A stretch of 64,000 nucleotides of DNA from Candidatus Nomurabacteria bacterium. Its GTDB lineage: Bacteria; Patescibacteriota; Minisyncoccia; Phycocordibacterales; UBA9973. A program made the position numbers and the translations under genes. Location: contig JAPLXU010000013.1 in NCBI GenBank assembly GCA_026395915.1, positions 16,428 through 80,427 on the forward strand, written 5' to 3'. Below, piece by piece: positions 3,122 to 62,499 of this stretch; within the stretch, counting starts at the first letter, position 1, and each line of letters opens with the position of its first letter. Below the pieces are notes generated by a model. That model saw nothing but the letters and a program-made list of their open reading frames with translations, ran no database searches and was not told where the DNA came from.

Positions 3122-5245
3122 ATGGATAAATCTAGCATTCAAAAAAGAATAACAAAACTGCGAAGCGAAATCGCGCGATTGAGAGACGCTTATCATACAA
3201 AAAATGCGCCTGACGTTACCGACGAGGTGTATGATTCTCTGACTCGCGAGCTGAAAGAGCTTTTGCAAAATTATCCAGAATTTGACGATTCAAATGCTCC
3301 GGAAAACAGAGTGGCAGGCAAACCGCTCGACAAATTCGTCAAAGTAAAACACGAAGTGAAAATGTTTTCAATCGGCAATGTGTTTTCAGCAGAAGAACTT
3401 TTTGCTTGGGAAAAAAGAAACTTAAAATTACTTCCCAATCTACAAAAACAATCTTTGGATTATTTTTGTGAGTTAAAATTCGACGGACTGGCTATATCGC
3501 TTATCTACGAGGATGGAAAATTTGCAAGAGGTGTGACGAGAGGAGATGGAGAAATCGGCGAAGACATTACCCAAAATTTGAAAACAATTAAAACGATTCC
3601 GCTCGCGTTCGAGGCGCCATATCCAGAAAGGATAGAGATTCGTGGCGAAGCGATTATGAAAAAAAATGTGTTGAAAAAACTCAATGAAGAAAACGAAAAA
3701 GAGGGGAAATTACTTTTTGCCAATTCGCGAAACGCTGCGGCGGGAAGCTTGCGCCAACTCGATCCAAAACTCGCAGAAGAAAGGCATCTAGATTTTTTTG
3801 CATATGAAATAGCGCAAATCAAAGGAGAAAAATGGCAGAAATATGTTGATAAACATTCTTTGAAACACGAATTACTAAAAAAATTAGGCTTTGCCGTTGA
3901 TGTGTACGCGAAGGAGGTTGTCGATTCAAAAGACATTTTAAATTTCATCGATAAGATTTCCAAAGTCCGCGACAGTTTAGATTTTGGCATTGATGGAGTG
4001 GTTATCAATGTGAATGAAACGAAGATTTTTGAAAATCTTGGAGTGGCGGGGAAAGACCCTCGCGGAATTATTGCTTTTAAGTATCCGGCTGAGAAGGCGA
4101 CTACCATCGTGAAAGATATTTTGATTAATGTTGGGCGTACTGGTGTCTTGACGCCACTTGCCGTTTTTGAACCGACTCTCGTAGCGGGTTCTAGAGTTTC
4201 AAAAGCAACCTTGCATAATATGGATCAAATAGAACGTTTAGATTTACGAATTGGTGATACTGTTGTTATAGAAAAAGCGGGGGATGTTATTCCGAAAGTT
4301 GTCGAAGTTTTGACACGTATGCGCACAGGCAAAGAGAAGAAATTTAAAATGCCGAAAACTTGCCCAGCTTGTAGGGGGAGCATAGAGAAAAAAGAAACAT
4401 CTGCGCAAATTCGCGAAATTTCCTCTGGCTTGACCCTTCCCGGAGTACCGGGTGGGACCCACACCATTCAGAAATCTCGCGAATTTGCGCAGATGTCTGT
4501 TGCTTACTATTGTTCAAATCCAAAATGTCCGGCAAAAAATGAAAGATATCTTGAACATTTTGTGTCTGTTTTTGAAATATACGAGCTCGGTCCGAAAATT
4601 TTGAGTCGATTTAAAGACGAAGGATTGATAACAGACGCGGCGGATATTTTTACGCTTGAAAAAGTTGACATCGCGCCCTTGGAGAGGTTCGGAGAAAAAT
4701 CAGCCGAGAATATTATAAAAGAAATAGAAAACAAAAAACATGTTTCCCTCACACGTTTTCTGTGGGCGCTTGGAATTTTGCATGTGGGTGAGGAGACTGC
4801 GCGAGACTTAGCAGAACATTTTGGCACTCTGGAAAAGTTAATATTCTCTGCAAGGCAAGACCTTGCAGAAGTAGATAATATCGAAAACATCGGTCCCGCG
4901 GTATCAAAAAGCCTTGTTGTTTTTTTTAATGATAAAAATAATTTAAACTTCATAAAAAAATTAAAAAAAAATGGTGTGGTTGTGGAAAAAGCAGAAGAAA
5001 ATCTAGCAAAGAGAAACGGGAAATTAAAAGGATTAAGTTTTGTTTTGACTGGTACGCTCCCAAATATGTCTCGAGAGATGGCAAAAAAGAAAATAATCTC
5101 TTTAGGAGGAAAAGTTGTGGGTTCAGTTTCAAAAAACACTTCCTATGTCGTAGCGGGGGTTGATCCGGGTTCCAAGCTAAAAAATGCGGAAAAATTAGGC
5201 GTTAAAGTGCTAGATGAAAAAAAGTTCCAAAATATGATAGGATAG
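3122..5245 (+). CDS. ligA: NAD-dependent DNA ligase
   Basis: ELKFDG adenylation motif, OB fold, C4 zinc finger, HhH and C-terminal BRCT. Confidence 0.97.
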   Translation: MDKSSIQKRITKLRSEIARLRDAYHTKNAPDVTDEVYDSLTRELKELLQNYPEFDDSNAPENRVAGKPLDKFVKVKHEVKMFSIGNVFSAEELFAWEKRNLKLLPNLQKQSLDYFCELKFDGLAISLIYEDGKFARGVTRGDGEIGEDITQNLKTIKTIPLAFEAPYPERIEIRGEAIMKKNVLKKLNEENEKEGKLLFANSRNAAAGSLRQLDPKLAEERHLDFFAYEIAQIKGEKWQKYVDKHSLKHELLKKLGFAVDVYAKEVVDSKDILNFIDKISKVRDSLDFGIDGVVINVNETKIFENLGVAGKDPRGIIAFKYPAEKATTIVKDILINVGRTGVLTPLAVFEPTLVAGSRVSKATLHNMDQIERLDLRIGDTVVIEKAGDVIPKVVEVLTRMRTGKEKKFKMPKTCPACRGSIEKKETSAQIREISSGLTLPGVPGGTHTIQKSREFAQMSVAYYCSNPKCPAKNERYLEHFVSVFEIYELGPKILSRFKDEGLITDAADIFTLEKVDIAPLERFGEKSAENIIKEIENKKHVSLTRFLWALGILHVGEETARDLAEHFGTLEKLIFSARQDLAEVDNIENIGPAVSKSLVVFFNDKNNLNFIKKLKKNGVVVEKAEENLAKRNGKLKGLSFVLTGTLPNMSREMAKKKIISLGGKVVGSVSKNTSYVVAGVDPGSKLKNAEKLGVKVLDEKKFQNMIG
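4397..4496. repeat. 100-bp palindromic element inside ligA
   Basis: Perfect 20-bp inverted repeat acatctgcgcaaattcgcga (4397-4416 / 4477-4496) with an inner cccgg-agta-ccggg hairpin. Confidence 0.9.
4847..4869. repeat. REP-like hairpin inside ligA, identical to the RAYT2 flank
   Basis: tctgcaagg-caaga-ccttgcaga, 23/23 identical to 62474-62496. Confidence 0.88.
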
Positions 5246-11091: not shown

Positions 11092-11484
11092 ATGGAATAT
11101 GTGAAAGATTTTGATGCATGGAATACAAAGAAAAAAATAATTGATCAAAAAGAAACGTCTGATCATGTATTTTTTGCTGAACGTGAAATCTGGTGGGGCT
11201 CGTTAGGATTAAACATTGGATATGAACAAGACGGAAAGAATGAAAATTTTGAGCGTCCTTTGCTTTTGATAAAAAAATTCAATAGAGATATTGTTTTAGC
11301 AGTTCCATTAACAAGTGTTGCAAAGAATAATAAGTTTCATCATAAGTTGAAATCAAGCGGTTCTTTTGTCATACTTTCGCAGATGAGACTTATTAGCACG
11401 AAAAGATTACTTCGTAGAGTGGAGAAAATAACAGATTCGGAATTTGAAGAAATTATTAGTAAAATTAAGAGTTTGTTCCCATAA
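11092..11484 (+). CDS. PemK/MazF-like endoribonuclease toxin (orphan)
   Basis: EREIWWGSLGLNIGYEQDGK..FERPLL, AVPLTS, ILSQMRLISTKRL; paralog at 45648. Confidence 0.8.
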   Translation: MEYVKDFDAWNTKKKIIDQKETSDHVFFAEREIWWGSLGLNIGYEQDGKNENFERPLLLIKKFNRDIVLAVPLTSVAKNNKFHHKLKSSGSFVILSQMRLISTKRLLRRVEKITDSEFEEIISKIKSLFP

Positions 11485-11536
11485 AAGCGAAACCCCGCTT
11501 TCGCGGGGAATCTCGGGGGCCTAACGACCATTTACC
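11485..11536 (-). ncRNA. Candidate small structured RNA, copy 1, convergent on the MazF-like gene
   Basis: Minus strand GTAAATG-hairpin-CCCGAGA-hairpin-TTTCG, downstream of a sigma70-like promoter; two related copies near 46.0-46.2 kb. Confidence 0.6.
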
Positions 11537-11541
11537 TAAGT

Positions 11542-11570
11542 AGTGTATACTAGACGAAAGGTAAAGTCAA
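11542..11570 (-). promoter_or_regulatory. Sigma70-like promoter of sRNA copy 1
   Basis: TTGACT-17 nt-TACACT on the minus strand. Confidence 0.6.
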
Positions 11571-25663: not shown

Positions 25664-27934
25664 ATGCGACTCAAGACACTTGAAATAAATGGCTTTAAAT
25701 CTTTTGCCCAGAAAACCGTTTTGGAATTCAATAACAGCATCGTCTGCGTGGTTGGCCCGAATGGTTCTGGAAAATCAAATGTTGTAGAAGCTCTCCGTTA
25801 TGTTTTGGGCGAGCAATCTATGAAGTCAATGCGCGGAAAGTCGGGTTTAGACCTTATTTTTAAAGGCTCAAAAAGCTTGTCCAAAGGTTCACGCGCCGGT
25901 GTCACAATCTATTTTGACAATTCCGACAAGGTTTTCAAACTTTCAAATAGCGAAGGAGGGGAGATAAATTTGAATTATGAAACTGTCAGCATTTCTCGCG
26001 AAGTTTATTCTGATGGATTGAACAAGTACATTTTGAATGGCTCGGAAGTTAGGTTGAAAGATATTCACAATCTCTTGGCGTCGGTCAATATCGGTTCCTC
26101 AGGACATCACATCATTTCTCAAGGTGAGGCGGATAGAATTTTAAACGCAAACATGGTGGACAGACGTGAGATGGTGGAAGACGCGCTCGGTCTCAAAATT
26201 TATCAATACAAAATAAAAGAAAGCGAGAGGAAACTCGAGCGAACGGAAGAAAACATGAAAGAGGTGACTCTTCAACGAAGAGAAAACGCTCCGCATTTGA
26301 ATTTTTTAAAAAAACAAGTAGAGAAGTTTGAGAAAGCAAAAGAAATGCAGGCCGACTTGGCTATTTTATATAAAGAATATTTAAGCAAGGAAAGTGTTTA
26401 TCTTGAAAATGAAAAAAACACGCTATCTCTTCAAAAAGATAAACTAAAAAGTGAACTTGAAAACGTTGCAAGCAAAATTTCAGCTACTGAAGATAACAAT
26501 TCTGCCGAGGGTAATAAAAAAATAAACGCCTTGCGTGTCGTTGAAGGCAATTTGAATTCTATTCGCGGAATGAAATCTGAAATGGAGCGCAAGCTCGGCA
26601 GAATAGAAGGAATGATCGAAATGGAAACTCGCAGGGCGGAACAAAATATCGCCGTTGTTGAAATTTCACAAGAAGAAATTAAAGCCGTTATCGCCGACAT
26701 CAACAATTCTATCGATGAAGCTATTTCCAAGAATGACGTGAGCGAAGTTAAACCAATTTTGGAGCGTATCAAAAGTATCTTGAAGAAATTCTCTTCGCAA
26801 AATACAGAAAAGTCCGGCGAAAATATCGAAATAAAAAATCTTAAACAAAGCCAGCAGGAGATTCTCGAAGAGATGAAGGGGATAGAGAGCAAGGAAAAAG
26901 ATATTGCAAAATCAGCAGAACTGCTCAAACAAGAAATAAACAAAGAGATGGAAGCCTTGCGGGATCTCGAACGAGAGAAATTCACTTGGAAGGTCAGGCA
27001 ACAAGAGTTGTCTTCTGCTTTAGAACTTACAGCGATCAAAGAAGGGAATCTAAAAAGCCGAACCGAAGCTTTTCTTAATGAGATAAAAGAAGGTGTGGCG
27101 CTGATCGGGCAAGAGATTTTGGCTTACAAAGATGAAGTTGCGGAAGCCTTGCTTCCGCCAGCTGGCGGAAGCAAGGCTTCCGCAACAACTCAAGAAGAAT
27201 TGAAACGCAAAATTGAAAGGATAAAAATAAAATTGGAAGATGCCGGCCTCGGCAGTGGCGCGGAAGTCCTGAAAGAATTCAAAGAAGTTTCGGAGAGGGA
27301 TGGATTTCTGGCTAAAGAAATGGAAGATTTAGCGAAAAGCATAGAGTCATTGGAAAAATTAATCGCAGATCTCAAAGAAAAAATAGATTTGGAATTCAAA
27401 GAAGGCGTTAGAAAAATCAATGTGGAATTTCAGGAATTTTTCTCTCTAATGTTCGGCGGGGGAACAGGTTCTCTTTCTATCGTGGTTGAAAATAAGAAGA
27501 AAAGGAAAAACGAGTTTGAAGAGGATGAATCTGTCGACGTCGAAAGCTCTGGCGAGTCGAAGGAAGAAATCGTGTTTGAAAAGGGGATAGAAATAAATGT
27601 TTCTCTTCCGCACAAGAAAGTCAAAGAGCTCAATGCTTTTTCAGGGGGAGAAAGATCGCTCACTTCCATCGCGCTTCTTTTTGCCATGTCGCAAGTCAAT
27701 CCGCCGCCATTTCTCGTTTTGGACGAGACCGATGCGGCGCTCGACGAAGCAAACTCTCGCAAATATGGAGACATGCTTGAGAAGTTGTCCAAACATTCAC
27801 AGCTCATCGTCGTCACCCACAATCGTGAGACGATGTCTCGAGCGGGTGTGCTTTATGGAGTGACGATAGGAAGCAACGGAGCCTCAAAACTTCTTTCTGT
27901 GAAATTCGACGAAGCAACTGCTATCGCGAAATAA
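25664..27934 (+). CDS. smc: SMC-family ATPase (short, 756 aa)
   Basis: GFKSF, GPNGSGKSN, IISQG, FSGGERS, LDETDAALD, VVTH; coiled-coil middle. Confidence 0.88.
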   Translation: MRLKTLEINGFKSFAQKTVLEFNNSIVCVVGPNGSGKSNVVEALRYVLGEQSMKSMRGKSGLDLIFKGSKSLSKGSRAGVTIYFDNSDKVFKLSNSEGGEINLNYETVSISREVYSDGLNKYILNGSEVRLKDIHNLLASVNIGSSGHHIISQGEADRILNANMVDRREMVEDALGLKIYQYKIKESERKLERTEENMKEVTLQRRENAPHLNFLKKQVEKFEKAKEMQADLAILYKEYLSKESVYLENEKNTLSLQKDKLKSELENVASKISATEDNNSAEGNKKINALRVVEGNLNSIRGMKSEMERKLGRIEGMIEMETRRAEQNIAVVEISQEEIKAVIADINNSIDEAISKNDVSEVKPILERIKSILKKFSSQNTEKSGENIEIKNLKQSQQEILEEMKGIESKEKDIAKSAELLKQEINKEMEALRDLEREKFTWKVRQQELSSALELTAIKEGNLKSRTEAFLNEIKEGVALIGQEILAYKDEVAEALLPPAGGSKASATTQEELKRKIERIKIKLEDAGLGSGAEVLKEFKEVSERDGFLAKEMEDLAKSIESLEKLIADLKEKIDLEFKEGVRKINVEFQEFFSLMFGGGTGSLSIVVENKKKRKNEFEEDESVDVESSGESKEEIVFEKGIEINVSLPHKKVKELNAFSGGERSLTSIALLFAMSQVNPPPFLVLDETDAALDEANSRKYGDMLEKLSKHSQLIVVTHNRETMSRAGVLYGVTIGSNGASKLLSVKFDEATAIAK
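27137..27186. repeat. Perfect 50-bp palindrome (REP doublet) inside smc
   Basis: gttgcggaagccttgcttccgccag|ctggcggaagcaaggcttccgcaac. Confidence 0.92.
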
Positions 27935-41105: not shown

Positions 41106-41936
41106 ATGGACAAAAATCAATTGGCTATTTTTGAAAACTTTAAAATAAGAAGGCATTATAACGAGAAAGAAGAAGTCTGGTATTTTTCAGTGGTTGATAT
41201 TATTGGAGCGCTTTTAGATCAGAATGATTTTCAAAAATCTAGAAGTTATTGGAAAAAGCTGGCACAACGACTCAGAGAGGAGGGAAGTCAAGTGGTGACA
41301 AATTGTCACCGGTTGAAAATGGTGGCAGCTGATGGAAAAATGAGAGAAACTGATGTAGCTAGTGTAGAAACTATTTTACGCATTATTCAAACAGTGCCAA
41401 GTAAAAGAGCTGAACCATTTAAGCTCTGGCTGGCGAAAGTTGGTTATGAAAGATTGCAGGAAATGGCTGATCCGGAAAAATCAATAAACAGAGCAAGAGA
41501 AAATTGGCAAAAACATGGACGTAGCAATCAATGGATACAGCAAAGAATGATGGGGCAGGAAATTAGAAACAAGCTCACGGATTATTGGAAAAATAATGAA
41601 GTAAAAGAAAAAAAAGAATATGCCATTTTGACGAATATTATTCACGAAGAATGGAGCGGTGTTTCTGTCCAAAGTCATAAAAAAATGAAGGGGCTAAAAA
41701 CTCAAAACTTGCGCGATCATATGTCCGACGCGGAATTGGTTTTTACCGCTTTGGCTGAATTATCCACCAGACAAATTGCTGAAACGATGGAAACAAAAGG
41801 ATTGGAAGAAAATAAAATTCCAGCAATAAAAGGTGGAAGCATTGCCAAAAATGCGCGAAAATCATTGGAGGCAAAAACTGGAAAGCCAGTGGTAACCGGC
41901 AAAAATTTTTTATTAGCAAGTGAAGTTAAAAAGTAA
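41106..41936 (+). CDS. BRO-N domain protein (phage antirepressor-like)
   Basis: WYFSVVDII, LKMVAADGKMRETD, AEPFKLWLA, NLRDHM. Confidence 0.8.
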   Translation: MDKNQLAIFENFKIRRHYNEKEEVWYFSVVDIIGALLDQNDFQKSRSYWKKLAQRLREEGSQVVTNCHRLKMVAADGKMRETDVASVETILRIIQTVPSKRAEPFKLWLAKVGYERLQEMADPEKSINRARENWQKHGRSNQWIQQRMMGQEIRNKLTDYWKNNEVKEKKEYAILTNIIHEEWSGVSVQSHKKMKGLKTQNLRDHMSDAELVFTALAELSTRQIAETMETKGLEENKIPAIKGGSIAKNARKSLEAKTGKPVVTGKNFLLASEVKK

Positions 41937-41940
41937 ACAT

Positions 41941-44900
41941 ATGAAAACTTTAAACACAACTGAATTTGATTCCATCGGATTGCGTCTCGCTTCGCCAGAG
42001 CAGATACAGGAATGGTCTTTTGGAGAAGTGACCAAACCGGAAACCATAAATTATCGCACGGGAAGGAGCGAACGTGGAGGTCTCTTTGACGAAAAAATAT
42101 TCGGGCCGGAAAAAGACTACGAATGTTACTGTGGAAAGTATCGCCGAATTCGTTACAAGGATATTATTTGCGAAAAATGCGGAGTGGAAGTTACGCGTTC
42201 GATTGTTCGTCGTGAACGCATGGGACATATCGAGCTTTCTACACCGGTATCGCATATTTGGTTCTTGCGTGGAGTGCCTTCTCGCATGAGCATCTTGCTC
42301 AATATCTCCGTGATTGATCTTGAAAAGGTTATTTATTTTGCCGGCTATATAATCACCAAAGTTCATGAGGAAGAAAAACAGTCAATAATCACAGGCTTGG
42401 ACAAAGAATATAAAGCCAAGCTAAAAAATGCGGCTGATGATGACATCAAAGAGAAGCTGAAAAATTTGCTTTCCGTCACCAAAAAAGAAATTGGAGAAAT
42501 CTACGAAGGAAAAGTTTTGAATGAAATTTCTTTCCATCATTATTCTCTGAAATACGGAACTTGTTTTGAAGCGAATATCGGCGCCGAAGCTATTTACTCA
42601 ATTTTCAAAAATCTTGACTTGAATAAATTAAAAGCTCACACCGAAAAAATGTTGGAGAAGGCGAGCGCTGCGGAAAAAGACAAATTACAGAAGAGGCTTT
42701 CTCTCATTCGCGCTATGACTTATGCTGGGATCAGACCGGAATGGATGTTCCTTACGATTATTCCTGTCATTCCTCCAGTTTTGCGTCCGATGGTGGCTCT
42801 CGATGGAGGCAGACATGCTACTTCTGATTTGAACGATCTTTACCGCAGAGTTATAAACAGAAATAATCGTTTGAAAAAATTAAAAGAGATCAACGCGCCG
42901 GACGTAATCTTGCGAAATGAAAAAAGAATCATCCAAGAAGCTGTCGACGCTTTGATTGATAACTCAATCGCGAAACAAAATGATTCTGCGGCGATGAGTC
43001 AATCTCAGAAACGCCCACTAAAATCTCTTTCGGACAATTTGAAATCTAAACAAGGTCTTTTTCGCCAAAATTTGCTCGGAAAAAGAGTAGACTATTCTGG
43101 ACGTTCGGTTATTGTTGTTGGTCCCGAACTCAAACTCAATCAATGCGGTTTGCCGAAGCATATGGCGCTCGAACTTTTCCGACCATTCGTGATTTCAAAA
43201 ATCTTGCAGGCGGAATTGGCGTTTAACATTCGCGGGGCAAATAAGCTCATCGAAGAACGCACCCCCGAAGTTTGGGCGATGCTCGAAGAAGTTATTGCGG
43301 GAAAGTATGTGCTTTTAAACCGCGCGCCGACCTTGCACAGATTGGGTATTCAAGCTTTTAATCCAATTCTGATTGAAGGAAATGCTATTCAAGTGCATCC
43401 TCTTGTTTGTCAGGCTTTTAACGCTGATTTCGATGGAGACCAAATGGCTGTCTATGTTCCTCTTCTCGAAGAAGCGCAGTCTGAAGCGAAAGAATTAATG
43501 GCTGCGAATAAAAATCTGCTCAAACCTCAAAACGGAGAGCCGATCGTAAACCCTCGCATGGACATGGTGCTCGGAAGCTATTGGATGACAAAATCAATGG
43601 AAGGAGAAAAAGGGGAGGGAAAATATTTTTCGCGACCTAATGTGGCTATTAGCGCCTATGAATATGGGATCACTTCTTTGCGCGCGAAAGTAAAAGTCTT
43701 AGCGGATACAGCTAAAGTAAAATACAAGAAATTTGATGGGGGAATTTTTGAAACTTCTGCCGGCAAACTTCTCTTTAATAGTATTTTGCCAGACGATTTT
43801 CCTTACGTGGGCGATGAAATGACTCAGGACAGACTGATTGCGCTTCTCGATGAACTCATAGTGCATTACGGCGTGGACGCTACTCCTAAAATCTTGGACA
43901 AGATAAAGGCGTTTGGTTTCAAATATTCGACAGTTTCTGGCACCACTTGGGGACTCGATAATGTTTCTGTGTCTCTCGACAAGCCAAAAATTATTGCGCA
44001 AGGTAAAAAATTGGAAGAAGAAATTATCTCTCAATGGAGGGAAGGTCTTTTGTCTGAAGAAGAGAAGTATCAAAAAATTATTGAAATTTGGACTCACACA
44101 AAAAAGGATTTGGAAAAAATTCTACCAAAAACATTGGATAAAAAAAGTTCCACTTACGATCTTTTCACTTCGAAAGCTAGAGGCACGATGTCTAGCTTGA
44201 TGCAAATGACAGGCATGATCGGACTTATCCAGAACAACCAAGGCAAGACTTTGGAGTTCCCGATTATTCCTTGTTATCAAGAAGGACTTTCTCCGATCGA
44301 GTATTTCGTCATCACACACGGAGCTCGTAAAGGTGCTTCTGATACCGCGCTCAATACCGCAAAAGCCGGATATTTGACGCGAAGACTGGTTGACGTTGCG
44401 CAGGATGTTGTCATTACGGAAATAGATTGTGGTACAAAAGAAGGAAGAATGGTCAGAAGCGAAGATATTTCCGGAATAAAAATTCCACTTTCAAAAAATA
44501 TTCGTGGACGAGTTTTGGCAGCCGATCTAAAAGACAAGGACGGCAAAGTGGTTTACAAAAAAGGATTTTTGGTCACCAAAGAAGAAGCTTACAATATCGA
44601 AGGCGCTGGTTTCACAGAAGTTTTTGTCCGTTCTCCACTAACCTGTGAGACTATTCACGGCCTCTGCGTCAATTGTTACGGACTTGATTTGGGACGCAAT
44701 CATCTTGTCGAGCTCGGTGAAGCAGTCGGTATCATTGCCGCTCAAGCTATCGGCGAACCGGGTACTCAGCTTACTCTTCGCACGTTCCATGCTGGAGGCG
44801 TGGCGGGAACTGATATCACGACTGGTTTGCCTCGCGTTGAAGAAATATTTGAAAGAAGAGTTCCCAAAAATCCTGCTATTATTTCTGAGACAGACGGAGA

Positions 44901-45579
44901 AGTTGTTGAGATAAAAGTCAAAGATGAGAAAGAGAAAATCATCAAAGTATTGTCCGATATTAAAGCCGACGGGAAAGGGGGTGATAAGAAAAATGAAATG
45001 GAATATATTGTGGCTTTTCATCGAACGCCGACAGTTAAAGTTGGCGACCACGTGAAAGCGGGCGACCTTTTGACTGACGGATCGGCTGATATTGCTGAGA
45101 TCTTCAAATTCGGTGGCAAGGAATTGGTTGAAAGATATATCATTCGAGAAATAAATAAAGTTTACGAATTGCAGAGCGCTTCGATTAGCAGAAAGCACAC
45201 GGAAATAATCATCCGCCAGATGTTCTCACGTCGAAAAATAAAAGATGCGGGTATCACCAATTTTTCGATTGGTGATATTGTTGAGAATACTGCATTTATA
45301 GAGGAAAATCAAAGAGTTGCTGGGTTAGATAAAAAAATAACTGAAGATGAAATTGGAGGACAGGCAAAAGCAGAAACAGTTGTACTCGGCATTACCGAAG
45401 TCTCGCTTCGTACAAAGAGCTGGCTCTCTGCCGCTTCGTTCCAAAACACAAATCGTGTTCTTATTGAAAACGCAATAAAAGGGGGAGTAGACGACCTACG
45501 AGGATTGAAAGAAAATGTCATAATCGGGCGACTCATTCCGGCCGGAACTGGGTTTAAAAATAAGATAAAGGCTGAATAA
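41941..45579 (+). CDS. rpoC: RNA polymerase beta' subunit
   Basis: [43 protein letters not shown]. Confidence 0.98.
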
Positions 45580-45580
45580 A

Positions 45581-45605
45581 TTTATCAAGGTGAGTCCTTG
45601 ATAAA
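45581..45605. repeat. REP-like hairpin between rpoC and the MazF-like gene
   Basis: tttatcaagg-tgagt-ccttgataaa; CAAGG-N5-CCTTG core as in the RAYT2 REPs. Confidence 0.7.
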
Positions 45606-45647
45606 GTAAAAGTAGTGGTGAAGGTTGAAAAGGGGAAATGGATATTT

Positions 45648-46127
45648 ATGCAAAAAGATTTTGATAAATGGAACACAGAGAAAAAAGCTGTAGATGCAAA
45701 AGTTGTAAATACAGAACTTTTCTTTCATGCTCGGGAAATTTGGTGGTGTAGCGCAGGATTAAATGTTGGAGTAGAAGCAGATGGAAAACACGAAAACTTT
45801 GAAAGGCCGATGCTAATTGTAAAAAAGTTTAATGCGGATATGGTATGGGCGCTTCCACTTACTACGCAAGGAAGAAAAAATAAGTATTATTATAAGTTGA
45901 ATCACGAAGAAGTAAAATCGTGGGTTGTTCTGTCACAAATAAAAACAATAAGCACAAAAAGATTTTTGCGAAAGGTAGGATCTATTTCTGAGTCAGATTT
46001 CAAGGAAGTAATTTTGAGGTTGCAAAAGTTGCTAAAAATCGAAAACCCCCTTACGGGGGCTTTCTCGGAGGCCGAAGCCACTAATACAAGAAGTATAAAC
46101 GGCAATCAAAACAAAGTCAAGCGATAG
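45648..46127 (+). CDS. PemK/MazF-like endoribonuclease toxin (orphan), paralog 2
   Basis: REIWWCSAGLNVGVEADGK..FERPML, ALPLTT, VLSQIKTISTKRF. Confidence 0.8.
   Translation: MQKDFDKWNTEKKAVDAKVVNTELFFHAREIWWCSAGLNVGVEADGKHENFERPMLIVKKFNADMVWALPLTTQGRKNKYYYKLNHEEVKSWVVLSQIKTISTKRFLRKVGSISESDFKEVILRLQKLLKIENPLTGAFSEAEATNTRSINGNQNKVKR
46036..46087 (-). ncRNA. Candidate small structured RNA, copy 2
   Basis: ggc-ttcg-gcc hairpin, TCCGAGA, ccccc-gtaa-ggggg, TTTCG; promoter TTGACT-17-TATACT at 46120-46092. Confidence 0.6.
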
Positions 46128-46183
46128 ACGAAACCCCCTTTCGGGGGTTTCTCGGGGTCTCCGACAAGGGAGACATTTACAAC
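46127..46183 (-). ncRNA. Candidate small structured RNA, copy 3
   Basis: GTAAAT-gtctcc-cttgtc-ggagac-CCCGAGA-ccccc-gaaa-ggggg-TTTCG; promoter TTGACA-16-TATACT at 46214-46187. Confidence 0.6.
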
Positions 46184-46269
46184 GTAAGTATATCAAATAC
46201 AAAAGACATGTCAAGTAAAAAATCAACCTTAATTTACAAGCTTATTATTAAAAATTTAACCAAAATAAT

Positions 46270-47889
46270 ATGAACAAAAAAATTATTTGGAGGGTTATCG
46301 TAGCGATTGTCATAATCGCAGGGGGCTTCGCGTATAATTATCTATCAAAACCAAAACCAGTGTGTTGGCCTTATTGTCCTGGAATGACGGATCAAGATCG
46401 TGAAGCAATCAAAAAATCTGCGCTTGAAGCCGAAACTGCGAATTGGAAAACGTACACAAATACTAAATATGGATTTGAAGTAAAGTATCCAGTAGATTGG
46501 AGAACTGAAGAGACAAAAACACGTTATGGTTCTACTATTTTCTCTCTAGCTCTAGTATCTCCAGAAACTGATGATTTTATCAAAAAAGTTCCTGGCACTG
46601 ATGCAAGTACATTTGACGTTGATTTTATGATATATCCATTAAATTACAGATCTAATGGTGTTCGTAGTCAGGTTGTGTTTAATGGAATTAATGCAGAAAA
46701 AGTTGTATCTGAATCTGAGCTGGGTACTCATAGTATTATCTATTTGGATGGAAAAAATTATACGTATGGGATATATAATATTAGTCCAAGAAACATTGAG
46801 GAGAATGATCAAATTCTCTCTACTTTCAAATTCATTGAGCCAACGACACAAATTGATACTTCGAATTGGAAAACGTATACAAATGAAAAATATGGTTTTT
46901 CATTATCATATCCAACCGACTTTGAAAATGTGAATGATTTAACTGCCACACAACAAAATTCTCTTTTGACGTATATGGCAGTATGTCTTGTTGGTAATAA
47001 TAATTCACGGATACGGCCAGATCAAAGTGGTTTCTGTTATGTAGGAAAACAAACGTCAGATGGGTTTACAATGGCTTCTTTGAACATAACTCCTAGTGTA
47101 TCGAAAAGTGCGCAAGAATGTAATAATACATCTGCTCAAATTAAGCAAACGACACTTAATGGTATTATCTTTGATCAATCCCATCTCGACGACGCTGGTT
47201 TAGGTCACTATGTATCAACAGATTCTTATAGGACATATCACCAGGGAATATGTTATACGATAGATCTAAACATTGAGTCGAATATAGGTAAATTAGAAAA
47301 GGGACTTAGCGTTGATTTTGCTTCTTTGATACATTCTAAATTAGAATCGATTCTTTCCACTTTCAAATTCATTCCAACCGCAAATATTTCCTCAAATGAT
47401 TCTTTGTTAAAAGCTGGAACAGATGTTTTGACTGCATTAAGAGATGATAATTATCAAAAACTAGAGGAACTTACGAGCTCAAGTGGTTTATCTTGGAATG
47501 AATATCCGCAACTTGATTTTACGAAAAATGATATTTCTAAAGATAGCATATCGGATATATCAACAGACAATAAAACTTATATGTTCGGTTACACAGATGG
47601 AAAAGGTGATCCTATCGTTTTAACAAAAAAAGACTATATAAAAGAATATCTTTATAATTACGACTACTTGTATGCTGAAAAGGTTGCTGTAAATAAAACA
47701 TTAGGTAGTGGAAACAGTGTTAATTCTATTATTAAGGATTCTGGAAATAGAACTGTCGTAGCTTACTATTTTTCTGGGTTTGATGCAAAATATGGTGGTA
47801 TGGATTGGACAACTTTGTATTTAGTTTTTGACAAGGAAAATGGTGTGTATAAGCTTTGTGGAATTGCAAAAGACAATTGGACAATTTAG
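46270..47889 (+). CDS. Membrane-anchored surface protein with two PsbP-like (WKTYxNxKYGF) modules and an unrelated C-terminal domain
   Basis: N-terminal TM; modules start with NWKTYTN.KYGF and end with ILSTFKF. Confidence 0.7.
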   Translation: MNKKIIWRVIVAIVIIAGGFAYNYLSKPKPVCWPYCPGMTDQDREAIKKSALEAETANWKTYTNTKYGFEVKYPVDWRTEETKTRYGSTIFSLALVSPETDDFIKKVPGTDASTFDVDFMIYPLNYRSNGVRSQVVFNGINAEKVVSESELGTHSIIYLDGKNYTYGIYNISPRNIEENDQILSTFKFIEPTTQIDTSNWKTYTNEKYGFSLSYPTDFENVNDLTATQQNSLLTYMAVCLVGNNNSRIRPDQSGFCYVGKQTSDGFTMASLNITPSVSKSAQECNNTSAQIKQTTLNGIIFDQSHLDDAGLGHYVSTDSYRTYHQGICYTIDLNIESNIGKLEKGLSVDFASLIHSKLESILSTFKFIPTANISSNDSLLKAGTDVLTALRDDNYQKLEELTSSSGLSWNEYPQLDFTKNDISKDSISDISTDNKTYMFGYTDGKGDPIVLTKKDYIKEYLYNYDYLYAEKVAVNKTLGSGNSVNSIIKDSGNRTVVAYYFSGFDAKYGGMDWTTLYLVFDKENGVYKLCGIAKDNWTI

Positions 47890-47907
47890 TGTGAATTAAA
47901 AAAACAT

Positions 47908-49275
47908 ATGAAGATTAATATAAAATTTATAGCATCGGTGATATTAATTGCGCTTTTTGCTGCCGGATTTTATTTTGTTGTATCACAGAAAAAGGTGCCA
48001 ATTACTTCTGCAACAGATGATTGGAAAACATACACAAATGAAAAGTACGGATTCGAGTTTAAATATCCAGCTTCAAAATATACGGTATTAGGATATGAAC
48101 TTAGTAGTCGGTATTATAAAGATGAATATGAAGTTGGTGTATATCCCATTGAAGAATATGGAGAATATTCAGGTACTGGACTCGGTATCTCTATAAGGAA
48201 TTTAGGAAAAACTCCAGTCAAATTAGAAGAGCTTATCAATTATCGTCCTCTTGGTATAGACAATACTCACAATACTAAAAAAATATTGGTGGGAGGCCAG
48301 GAGGCTGTTCGAGTTGATCATGATCTTATTCAGATTTCTGGATATGACGGTCAGCAATCAATTTTTCAGTCTTATGTTTATTTTATTAAAAATAACTTGC
48401 TTTATACTATAAATATAGAAAAAGATTCAGTCGACTTAGAAAAAAATATTTCTTTAGAAGAAATTCTTTCTTCTTTTGAATTTACTGATCCAACGACTGA
48501 CGTTTCAAATTGGAAAACATATAGCGGATATGGAATTTCTTTTAAATACCCTAGCTCTATGGGTGAGCCGAAGATCACGCAGTTAAGTACCATGACGTCA
48601 TTTAGTTTTAGTAATAGTGTAGAATTTGATATAGGTGTTTATTATGATCAAAATTTTGGTAGAAATAAAACATTTGACGAAGTTGTAAATAAGGCAAAAA
48701 ATAATCCGGAAGTTGTCTATCGTGGAGAAAAAGATATTACTGTGGGTAATAAAACTGGTGTAGAGCTTTTTCTGTTAGATAAAGTCTCTGGCGGTGAATC
48801 GGTAGAAATTTATGTTCCAAACATAGATAAGCATGGAAATATGTTATCTGGTTCTGAATATAACAGGGCGGTGGCTAATGTTGGTGGTGCTGATCTTCTG
48901 TCAATCATGAAAACTTTAGAATTTACTGAACCAGCAACACAAATTGACACTTCAAATTGGAAAACATATAAAAATGAAGACTATGGGATAGAGTTTAAAT
49001 ATCTTAGTACTTATAGCATATTAGATAGAAGTTATATAACTCCAGGAGGAGGTGTTTTTCCATCAGTAGCGATTGTTCCTCCAACTGATCAAGAAAATGA
49101 TCTAATAATTATTGGTTCTAGAACTTTAGTAAGTACGGCACCTGCAATTTCTTGTAATTCTACATTTACAAGGTGTAAAGAATTTGGGTCAAATATTGTA
49201 TATACTAAAGCTCAAAATAGTAACATTCAGGTTCTGTTTGATAACTTTATTGATACCGTAAAATTCACCAAATAA
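47908..49275 (+). CDS. Membrane-anchored surface protein with three PsbP-like modules
   Basis: N-terminal TM; three WKTY..YG..FKY modules. Confidence 0.7.
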   Translation: MKINIKFIASVILIALFAAGFYFVVSQKKVPITSATDDWKTYTNEKYGFEFKYPASKYTVLGYELSSRYYKDEYEVGVYPIEEYGEYSGTGLGISIRNLGKTPVKLEELINYRPLGIDNTHNTKKILVGGQEAVRVDHDLIQISGYDGQQSIFQSYVYFIKNNLLYTINIEKDSVDLEKNISLEEILSSFEFTDPTTDVSNWKTYSGYGISFKYPSSMGEPKITQLSTMTSFSFSNSVEFDIGVYYDQNFGRNKTFDEVVNKAKNNPEVVYRGEKDITVGNKTGVELFLLDKVSGGESVEIYVPNIDKHGNMLSGSEYNRAVANVGGADLLSIMKTLEFTEPATQIDTSNWKTYKNEDYGIEFKYLSTYSILDRSYITPGGGVFPSVAIVPPTDQENDLIIIGSRTLVSTAPAISCNSTFTRCKEFGSNIVYTKAQNSNIQVLFDNFIDTVKFTK

Positions 49276-49280
49276 AACAT

Positions 49281-61767: not shown

Positions 61768-61796
61768 AAACCTGCAAGGCAAGACCTTGCAGGTTT
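61768..61796. repeat. REP-like hairpin downstream of RAYT2
   Basis: aaacctgcaagg-caaga-ccttgcaggttt. Confidence 0.88.
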
Positions 61797-62470: not shown

Positions 62471-62499
62471 AAATCTGCAAGGCAAGACCTTGCAGATTT
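62471..62499. repeat. REP-like hairpin upstream of RAYT2
   Basis: aaatctgcaagg-caaga-ccttgcagattt. Confidence 0.88.

Follow-up and report, generated by a model that had tools for sequence, protein, structure and literature searches.

What keeps a MazF-like toxin in check when its gene follows rpoC, and why do two promoter-driven units face its 3' end? The question arose from a 64,000-nt stretch (the window) of genome G000, a Candidatus Nomurabacteria bacterium (812 kb, 95.65% complete), in which a preliminary description had placed two tandem promoter-sRNA cassettes at a toxin gene here called locus 2. The two minus-strand promoters that it reported were found at 46120-46092 (TTGACT-17-TATACT) and 46214-46187 (TTGACA-16-TATACT), and further details agreed as well: the stem-1 variants, the CCGAGA and TTTCG motifs and the GAAA, GTAA and GAAA loops are all present in the three copies, the 29-codon tail of the toxin reading frame takes in copy 2 together with its promoter, and the leader of copy 3 has GTAAAT in common with that of locus 1. 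The features are listed below, with bit scores from a covariance model, R1.

41920..45579, plus strand: rpoC, named from its translation
45648..46127, plus strand: MazF/PemK-family toxin gene of locus 2, 159 aa (PF02452, PemK_toxin, E 3.5e-15), with a 130-aa core up to 46037 and then a 29-aa tail that reads through copy 2
46034..46085, minus strand: copy 2, predicted RNA of ~52 nt (R1, 76.2 bits)
46092..46120, minus strand: promoter of copy 2, TTGACT-17-TATACT, predicted +1 at 46085
46129..46180, minus strand: copy 3, predicted orphan RNA with a longer P1 and without a U tract (R1, 56.8 bits)
46187..46214, minus strand: promoter of copy 3, TTGACA-16-TATACT, 11 of 12 consensus matches and a TG (extended -10), predicted +1 at 46180
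11092..11484, plus strand: paralogous toxin gene of locus 1, 130 aa, 52% identical to locus 2
11483..11535, minus strand: copy 1, predicted RNA of locus 1 (R1, 55.2 bits)
11542..11570, minus strand: promoter of copy 1, TTGACT-17-TACACT

The toxin of locus 2

Four PemK genes are present in G000. Locus 2 starts 68 nt past the end of rpoC, locus 1 begins 3 nt past pheS and has pheT downstream of it, a third paralog is carried by contig C2, and the fourth gene, on contig C7, is an ordinary type II one. The locus 2 protein was modelled by AlphaFold with a pLDDT of 91, and comparison of this model with known structures indicated a MazF fold (Z 14.7 to MazF-mt1, rmsd 2.0, 104 residues aligned), with Z scores of 10.4 and 7.3 to the type III toxins CptN (4rmo) and ToxN (4ato), respectively. 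By profile the nearest structure was B. subtilis MazF (E 3e-10), and no type III toxin was among the 37 sequence hits at E ≤ 1. The Arg and Thr that are named as catalytic in MazFs (PMC11394972) were kept in 99% (R53) and 81% (T72) of 121 homologues aligned to B. subtilis MazF, and the locus 2 toxin is predicted to cleave RNA. An N-terminal helix (residues 5-17), in which F5, W8 and K12 are conserved across the family, lies outside the aligned part of the closest MazF structures, which align only from about residue 21-25 on. Family toxins are basic, with a median net charge of +8.

The 29-residue tail is probably incidental read-through, because in 107 of 132 homologues the stop comes no more than 5 codons from the core end. 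A function for the tail was considered and found unsupported, as its length varies in close orthologues of locus 2 (18-31 codons) and most homologues are without one. A search of NCBIfam gave weak MazF/ChpB matches only, far under the cut-off, PADLOC made no defence-system call on the locus, and IMG/VR, searched with the single toxin protein, yielded no relative. The ESM Atlas search returned PemK clusters only, the commonest taxon being Minisyncoccota.

Occurrence of the unit and the case for a minus-strand RNA

The number of promoters alone was not above chance (3 found versus 1.9 expected), and minus-strand folding z-scores for copies 1-3 were -1.9, -2.8 and -5.1. R1, which was built from 70 promoter-plus-RNA units, produced exactly four strong hits over the 812-kb genome (76, 58, 57 and 55 bits; the next hit scored 20 bits), three of these four copies being in its training set and copy 3 outside it. 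All four face the 3' ends of the three solo paralogs of G000, the fourth being a variant unit behind the paralog on contig C2. No Rfam family matched the units at gathering level. The RNA of copy 2 is predicted to consist of a 6-nt leader, a hairpin P1 with a UUCG loop, a linker, a hairpin P2 with a GUAA loop, and a U tract. Three metatranscriptome contig sets, compared with positions 44800-46600, left the gene and the units uncovered and are uninformative on expression.

The preliminary description had proposed a covariance model and co-occurrence with this toxin subfamily as a check, and the association proved strong. Homologues were collected from the class, where 54 of 301 genomes had a match and 70 loci were taken, and from GTDB contigs (51 loci), and the 141 gene rows, minus exact duplicates and N-terminal fragments, came to 133, including one type II control. 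An R1 hit was found at the 3' end of 130 of the 132 family genes (hit start -40 to +80 nt from the core end), and the remaining two units were recovered by a pattern parser. Because 70 of the 130 units had trained R1, 27 held-out loci from other classes were tested, and 23 of them had an R1 unit; of the other four, two have the layout when inspected by eye, one has diverged and in one nothing was seen. None of eight type II PemK genes had the unit; all eight overlap a small gene on their upstream side, and three of the five such genes scanned gave antitoxin Pfam hits. The controls include the ordinary type II PemK gene of G000 on C7 (G000:C7:62464-62739), with an overlapping upstream gene and no RNA unit.

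A protein antitoxin encoded upstream was rejected for the family: locus 2 follows rpoC, locus 1 follows pheS, and none of 33 small upstream ORFs carries an antitoxin domain. Clustering of the 92 ORFs upstream of family genes gave 85 groups unrelated to one another. In a reverse test on 80 unselected genomes, in which 54 candidates per genome were scored and four units of one genome (G059) were missed, 13 of the 16 hits of at least 35 bits adjoined a family gene; the exceptions were one orphan in a toxin-bearing genome, one unit behind an NYN gene and one at a contig end. The family profile matches 760 clusters at 50% identity (E ≤ 1e-30), and within the class 54 of 301 genomes were found to carry the family, within the phylum 31 of 301. 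Ordinary type II PemK is no commoner than the family in the 80 Patescibacteria genomes searched. As judged by comparison, this solo-MazF family is large, is without a recognisable protein antitoxin and is mis-annotated as type II.

Units lie downstream of the toxin gene and are convergent with it, nearly always with their own promoter; two units under one promoter were seen only in L046 and L258, and perhaps L109. At L035 (G192:C5:1-7500), L036 and L039-L041, two to five paralogous modules of toxin and RNA are clustered in a span of a few kb, every module having an RNA variant of its own. In part of the family the toxin mRNAs may be leaderless, as suggested by 28 of 117 genes in which exactly 6 nt separate the end of a -10-like hexamer from the ATG, versus 0-10 genes at other offsets (L002-L125).

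Sequence conservation in 110 non-redundant units followed the pattern expected of a promoter and its start site, with up to 2.3 bits per column in the -35 and -10 boxes, which are among the best conserved columns, a spacer near zero, and, 7 nt after the -10 box, a pyrimidine (92%) followed by a purine (94%). All 13 modelled base pairs have changed on both sides; 90.9% were paired, versus 68.0% in shuffled and 42-61% in slid controls, in an alignment that had been fitted to the modelled structure. Among four-base loops, GNRA or UNCG was found on the promoter strand in 72 of 101 (P1) and 55 of 71 (P2), and on the opposite strand in 0 and 1. In P2 the excess of G-U over A-C was only 31 to 17 (p 0.06). 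Of 51 class A units, 47 have P2 closed by a conserved bulged-GA motif, and a U tract follows P2 in 60 of 107, while other classes have a third hairpin in the last codons of the toxin instead. CCGAGA and TTTCG, which are invariant in the three copies, are so only inside one RNA class and not family-wide. The earlier proposal that the minus strand is the functional RNA gained support here: because of the covariation, the tetraloops and the conserved YR start, a predicted RNA of ~50 nt on that strand is likely the functional product. Pairing of the P1 loop with the linker in a pseudoknot was rejected, because 22 of 51 class A units change the loop yet keep the linker; an H-type pseudoknot is unsupported, this being the only candidate checked.

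The same conservation bears on two readings in which the RNA itself would matter little. In the first, which we hold to be highly improbable, the hairpins would act as DNA to mobilise the gene, in the manner of REP-like repeats, of repeats recognised by a nuclease or of attC-like sites, a role that could suit modules that move between many sites; against this, the genome holds only four copies, all at toxin genes, the identity of the tetraloops is strand-specific and typical of RNA, and every unit is tied to a spaced promoter and YR start. In the second, transcription itself would act, by collision or interference from a strong convergent promoter, or the unit would be a mere terminator with an antisense promoter. 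The conservation of the hexamers fits this view, as do the scoring of P2 and the U tract as an intrinsic terminator and the similar promoter-plus-hairpin behind a clade of NYN genes. We nevertheless regard it as improbable, since a terminator ~50 nt downstream would halt the polymerase before it reached the gene, the sequences of P1, leader and linker are conserved, and orphan units persist away from toxins.

The NYN/LabA-like clade shows the same layout in G000:C8:35044-35460 (L269) and in L266, L268 and L270-L273, with further units in L090, L021, L036 and L061. The unit there comprises a convergent TTGAC-17-TAnnnT promoter and a short structured RNA that ends at the stop codon. The strict promoter pattern was present in 6 of 12 NYN loci printed, a seventh (that of G000 itself) shows the RNA by eye, and the five best-scoring canonical NYN genes have no promoter-plus-RNA unit. 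This RNA differs from the MazF-linked one and possibly represents a parallel RNA-antitoxin family.

Copy 3 and the site behind rpoC

Which of the two units belongs to the locus 2 toxin was indicated by its orthologues. All five close orthologues (72-90% identity) carry a single unit that is near-identical to copy 2, and for this reason copy 2 is the toxin's own antitoxin candidate. Copy 3 keeps a near-consensus promoter and a fully paired yet different P1; it is without a U tract and therefore may read on into copy 2. Outside P1, 35 of its 38 nt are identical to the RNA of a toxin clade (L204/L213) that sits at the same rpoC site in two congeners and whose toxin type is absent among the PemK genes of G000. 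When 124 RNAs were ranked by similarity to copy 3, members of the L204/L213 clade took ranks 1-3, locus 1 rank 4 and copy 2 rank 14, and on that last rank the idea that copy 3 is a duplicate of copy 2 was rejected.

A family toxin follows rpoC in 5 of 34 rpoC loci of the genus and family, most of which run straight to dnaG, and the toxins at this site are of four types, 36-74% identical to the G000 paralogs. On this comparative record the site just after rpoC is an insertion hot spot for these modules. A mirror case is seen in the L222 congener, where a locus-1-like toxin with its own RNA is preceded by a foreign, decayed unit. At least 7 of the 132 loci (the window, L009, L031, L033, L046, L048 and L109) carry extra units, as do L238, L256 and L258 in the held-out set; judged by eye, these units are mostly of another class than the unit that belongs to the neighbouring toxin. 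Their foreign class and the kinship of copy 3 are best explained by serial replacement that leaves antitoxin genes behind, and copy 3 is likely an orphan antitoxin RNA left by a replaced toxin at the same site. Of the alternatives offered in the preliminary description for the stacked cassettes, that of remnants of replaced toxins thus holds for copy 3, while cross-protection of the locus 1 paralog is weakened by the higher ranks of the L204/L213 clade.

At L161 (G076:C7:29610-29687), in a genome with other family toxins, an orphan unit is followed by an apparent remnant of the last codons of a toxin. The rpoC-dnaG junction of the window (45580-49280), where the two genes are adjacent in most congeners, holds the toxin module and two genes with PsbP_2-like repeated domains; other congeners have other inserts at this junction. 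A Bro-N domain gene lies between rpoB and rpoC (41106-41936). Elsewhere in the window are a perfect 50-nt palindrome without a loop (27137-27186) and a family of short palindromic repeats (4844-4872, 61768-61796 and 62471-62499).

Relatives and proposed mode of action of the RNA

A tblastn search found distant members of the family outside the Patescibacteria, on 45 records of plasmids and 7 of phages, of which nearly all belong to Campylobacterota. One of these, WP_011117588.1, is the only annotated TA toxin among the 48 features of plasmid pVir of C. jejuni 81-176; it matches the family at 31% identity by tblastn (E 3e-8) and by profile at E 1.6e-34 over positions 4-126, and it has the family's N-terminal helix. 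Behind it lie a convergent promoter and a ~100-nt hairpin RNA that ends near the stop codon. The same layout was visible by eye in five of seven loci (pVir, CJIE4, two Helicobacter plasmids and Nitratiruptor) and was not clear in L278 and L279; in these seven, R1 scored 13-19 bits at the right place in three, with 13 bits for the pVir RNA.

The pVir locus is probably the published cjrA/cjpT pair, in which cjpT is the name we take to be that of the toxin partner of cjrA, and the solo-MazF family of Patescibacteria is probably kin to that pair. The CjrA antisense sRNA is described as a type I antitoxin, with credit to Shen et al. 2016 (PMID 27291507), in three citing papers (PMC10470494, PMC7826846, bioRxiv 2020.01.02.893479), of which two name strain 81-176 and one places CjrA on pVir. 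Common to both systems are a full-length homologous toxin with the N-terminal helix and a convergent promoter with hairpin RNA at the 3' end. They differ in that the pVir RNA is ~100 nt long, has other hairpins, is plasmid-borne and was published as type I antisense, whereas the modules of Patescibacteria lie among housekeeping genes, are multi-copy, have an RNA of ~50 nt and stack orphan units. If the pVir RNA is cjrA, then RNA antitoxicity has already been shown for one distant family member. Copies of the pVir RNA, 84-93% identical, lie at NC_004997.1:3080-3174, NZ_CP084081.1:3411-3506 and NZ_OU701460.1:7110-7165 (L282-L284, in that order). Two of these records are small plasmids with no family toxin in any frame, and in the third a 2.4-kb stretch was checked. 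The copy on pCJ419 keeps the -10 promoter box. Hits to cjrA without the toxin are reported for four isolates (PMC7826846).

Among known systems, type III modules (ToxIN, CptIN, TenpIN and AbiQ) likewise pair a Kid/MazF-fold protein with a non-coding RNA, and ToxI RNAs are described as a conserved structured core with clade-specific single-stranded flanks that set specificity (PMC8860590), an arrangement of unpaired flanks that is found in the solo-MazF RNAs too. Type III RNAs, however, are tandem repeats upstream of the toxin, on the same strand, under one promoter and with a terminator between, whereas solo-MazF units lie downstream, on the opposite strand, with their own promoter, and are mostly single-copy with no supported pseudoknot; the toxin is closer to type II MazF (Z 14.7) than to CptN or ToxN. 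By layout and pseudoknot, the solo-MazF modules are outside the classical type III families. Nor, judged by gene content, are they type II: fold and catalytic Arg and Thr are those of MazEF/PemIK, but a recognisable protein antitoxin is lacking and an N-terminal helix of ~22 residues is extra. AbiF/AbiFr is similar in combining a solo RNase with one conserved structured ncRNA, without a repeat array and with unpaired bases that inhibit AbiF, but AbiF is a HEPN protein, and fold and RNA are unrelated (PMC12737573). Going by its name, the Rfam pemK RNA motif (RF02913) is a structured RNA associated with pemK genes, and Rfam types it as cis-regulatory; its covariance model gave no hit at any unit, the best in the genome being 18.4 bits elsewhere (cut-off 34.8). 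A literature search that was mostly without subscription papers found no description of this MazF-RNA system in Patescibacteria, and no paper on a PemK-RNA system named RemIN.

We asked how the RNA would act, and give a probability of about 0.55 to a toxin-antitoxin module in which the MazF-fold toxin is held inactive by direct binding of the ~50-nt two-hairpin RNA made from the facing promoter, the second unit being the orphan antitoxin of an earlier toxin at the site. In such a module the toxin would be co-transcribed with rpoC and, with its catalytic Arg and Thr conserved, would be an active RNase. The strong convergent sigma-70 promoter would yield the short RNA, whose leader, P1, linker, P2 and U tract are supported by conservation, and which would dock on the toxin, presumably a MazF-like dimer. 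The single-stranded 5' leader might occupy the substrate channel as an uncleavable mimic of the 3' product, while the hairpins might bind the basic, family-specific N-terminal helix; the mimic is proposed because ACA-like leaders are commonest and ACA is a MazF target (PMC7826846). Should RNA synthesis stop, through loss of the element, stress or phage shut-off, free toxin would cleave mRNA, as in known TA systems. Modules replace one another at hot spots such as rpoC-dnaG, a pattern that was observed, and leftover RNA genes would be kept, probably as immunity to toxins of the lost class.

Direct binding is favoured over antisense pairing because the unpaired bases of the RNA track toxin clades. 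For toxins more than 80% identical, the identities of spacer, leader and linker were 0.51, 0.95 and 0.97; at 60-80% they were 0.37, 0.80 and 0.84, at 50-60% 0.33, 0.69 and 0.54, and below 30% 0.32, 0.37 and 0.29 (pairs are non-independent). At 60-80% toxin identity the promoter spacer is thus near background (0.37 versus 0.32), a comparison to be read with the caveat that linkage alone gives RNA and toxin one tree and that related genomes are non-independent. The tree itself was a quick version with crude class labels and visible mislabels, and was for that reason taken only as a sign of clustering.

A type I antisense mechanism, which is possible though on balance doubtful, would have the convergent RNA pair with the 3' UTR of the toxin mRNA and RNase III destroy the duplex, with orphans acting in trans on near-identical mRNAs. 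YUNR motifs are typical of antisense kissing loops, and of 121 units 94 have one at P1 when the RNA strand is read, mostly by way of UUCG, versus 28 for the mRNA strand. G000 encodes an RNase III (PF14622, E 2.3e-37), and a toxin-strand U tract after P2 was found in 0 of 107 units, so that the toxin mRNA probably extends across the entire RNA and the two could pair over its full length. The convergent 3' overlap is the layout of txpA/RatA and par RNAI/RNAII, in which the antitoxin RNA is likewise transcribed toward the 3' end of the toxin gene (PMC8167048), but those toxins are short peptides, whereas the solo-MazF toxin has an RNase fold and the RNA core lies mostly beyond the stop codon. The label of cjrA in the citing papers and, in some classes, the third hairpin within the last codons of the toxin also agree with antisense action, as do the near-identical pVir RNA orphans on toxin-free plasmids, which fit the binding model equally.

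Antisense pairing leaves unexplained why unpaired bases are conserved by clade while the spacer is saturated, since a cis-antisense RNA is complementary whatever its sequence and has no need of conserved unpaired bases. It also leaves the bulged-GA motif unexplained. The RNA is very short and mostly paired: the P1-P2 core has a median of 42 nt and a longest single strand of 6 nt (median), and 86 of 107 loci have it past the stop codon. On its own toxin mRNA the core showed no second site at which pairing was preferred (rank 0.48 and 0.51, p 0.47 and 0.68). Many toxins lie a few bases behind housekeeping genes (pheS, rpoC), which cutting of the mRNA would hit too. In copy 3 the P1 is wholly different from that of its nearest relatives, a change that would break a duplex yet keeps the shape.

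Direct binding can be placed in a wider joint reading, which we advance tentatively, as somewhat less probable than not. The family would then be a separate and very large one of direct-binding RNA antitoxins, in which a type II MazF, having parted with its protein antitoxin and acquired a basic helix at the N-terminus, came to be inhibited by a pseudoknot-free RNA of ~50 nt; the 5' leader would mimic the cleavage product and encode clade specificity, and orphan RNA genes would form compact immunity stacks against toxin clades no longer carried. RNA antitoxicity as such likely has a precedent in cjrA/cjpT, on which the preliminary description was silent, and this lowers the novelty; new here are the size and spread of the family in Patescibacteria, the comparative case for direct binding, the stacking of orphan antitoxins and a possible NYN counterpart. 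Even if the RNA acts as antisense, an isolated report from Campylobacter gains a phylum-wide family and the orphan cjrA hits are explained. Few direct-binding RNA antitoxins are known (ToxI, CptI, TenpI and AbiFr), and the many matched toxin-RNA pairs, together with natural orphans, make a specificity code directly testable; from the pairs one would learn how a protein antitoxin can give way to an RNA, and they are a possible source of new sequence-specific RNases with 50-nt off-switches. If the joint reading is true, the filing of cjrA/cjpT under type I would be wrong, NYN nucleases of one clade may have arrived at the same solution in parallel, and the orphan RNA stacks would resemble the orphan immunity genes of polymorphic toxins.
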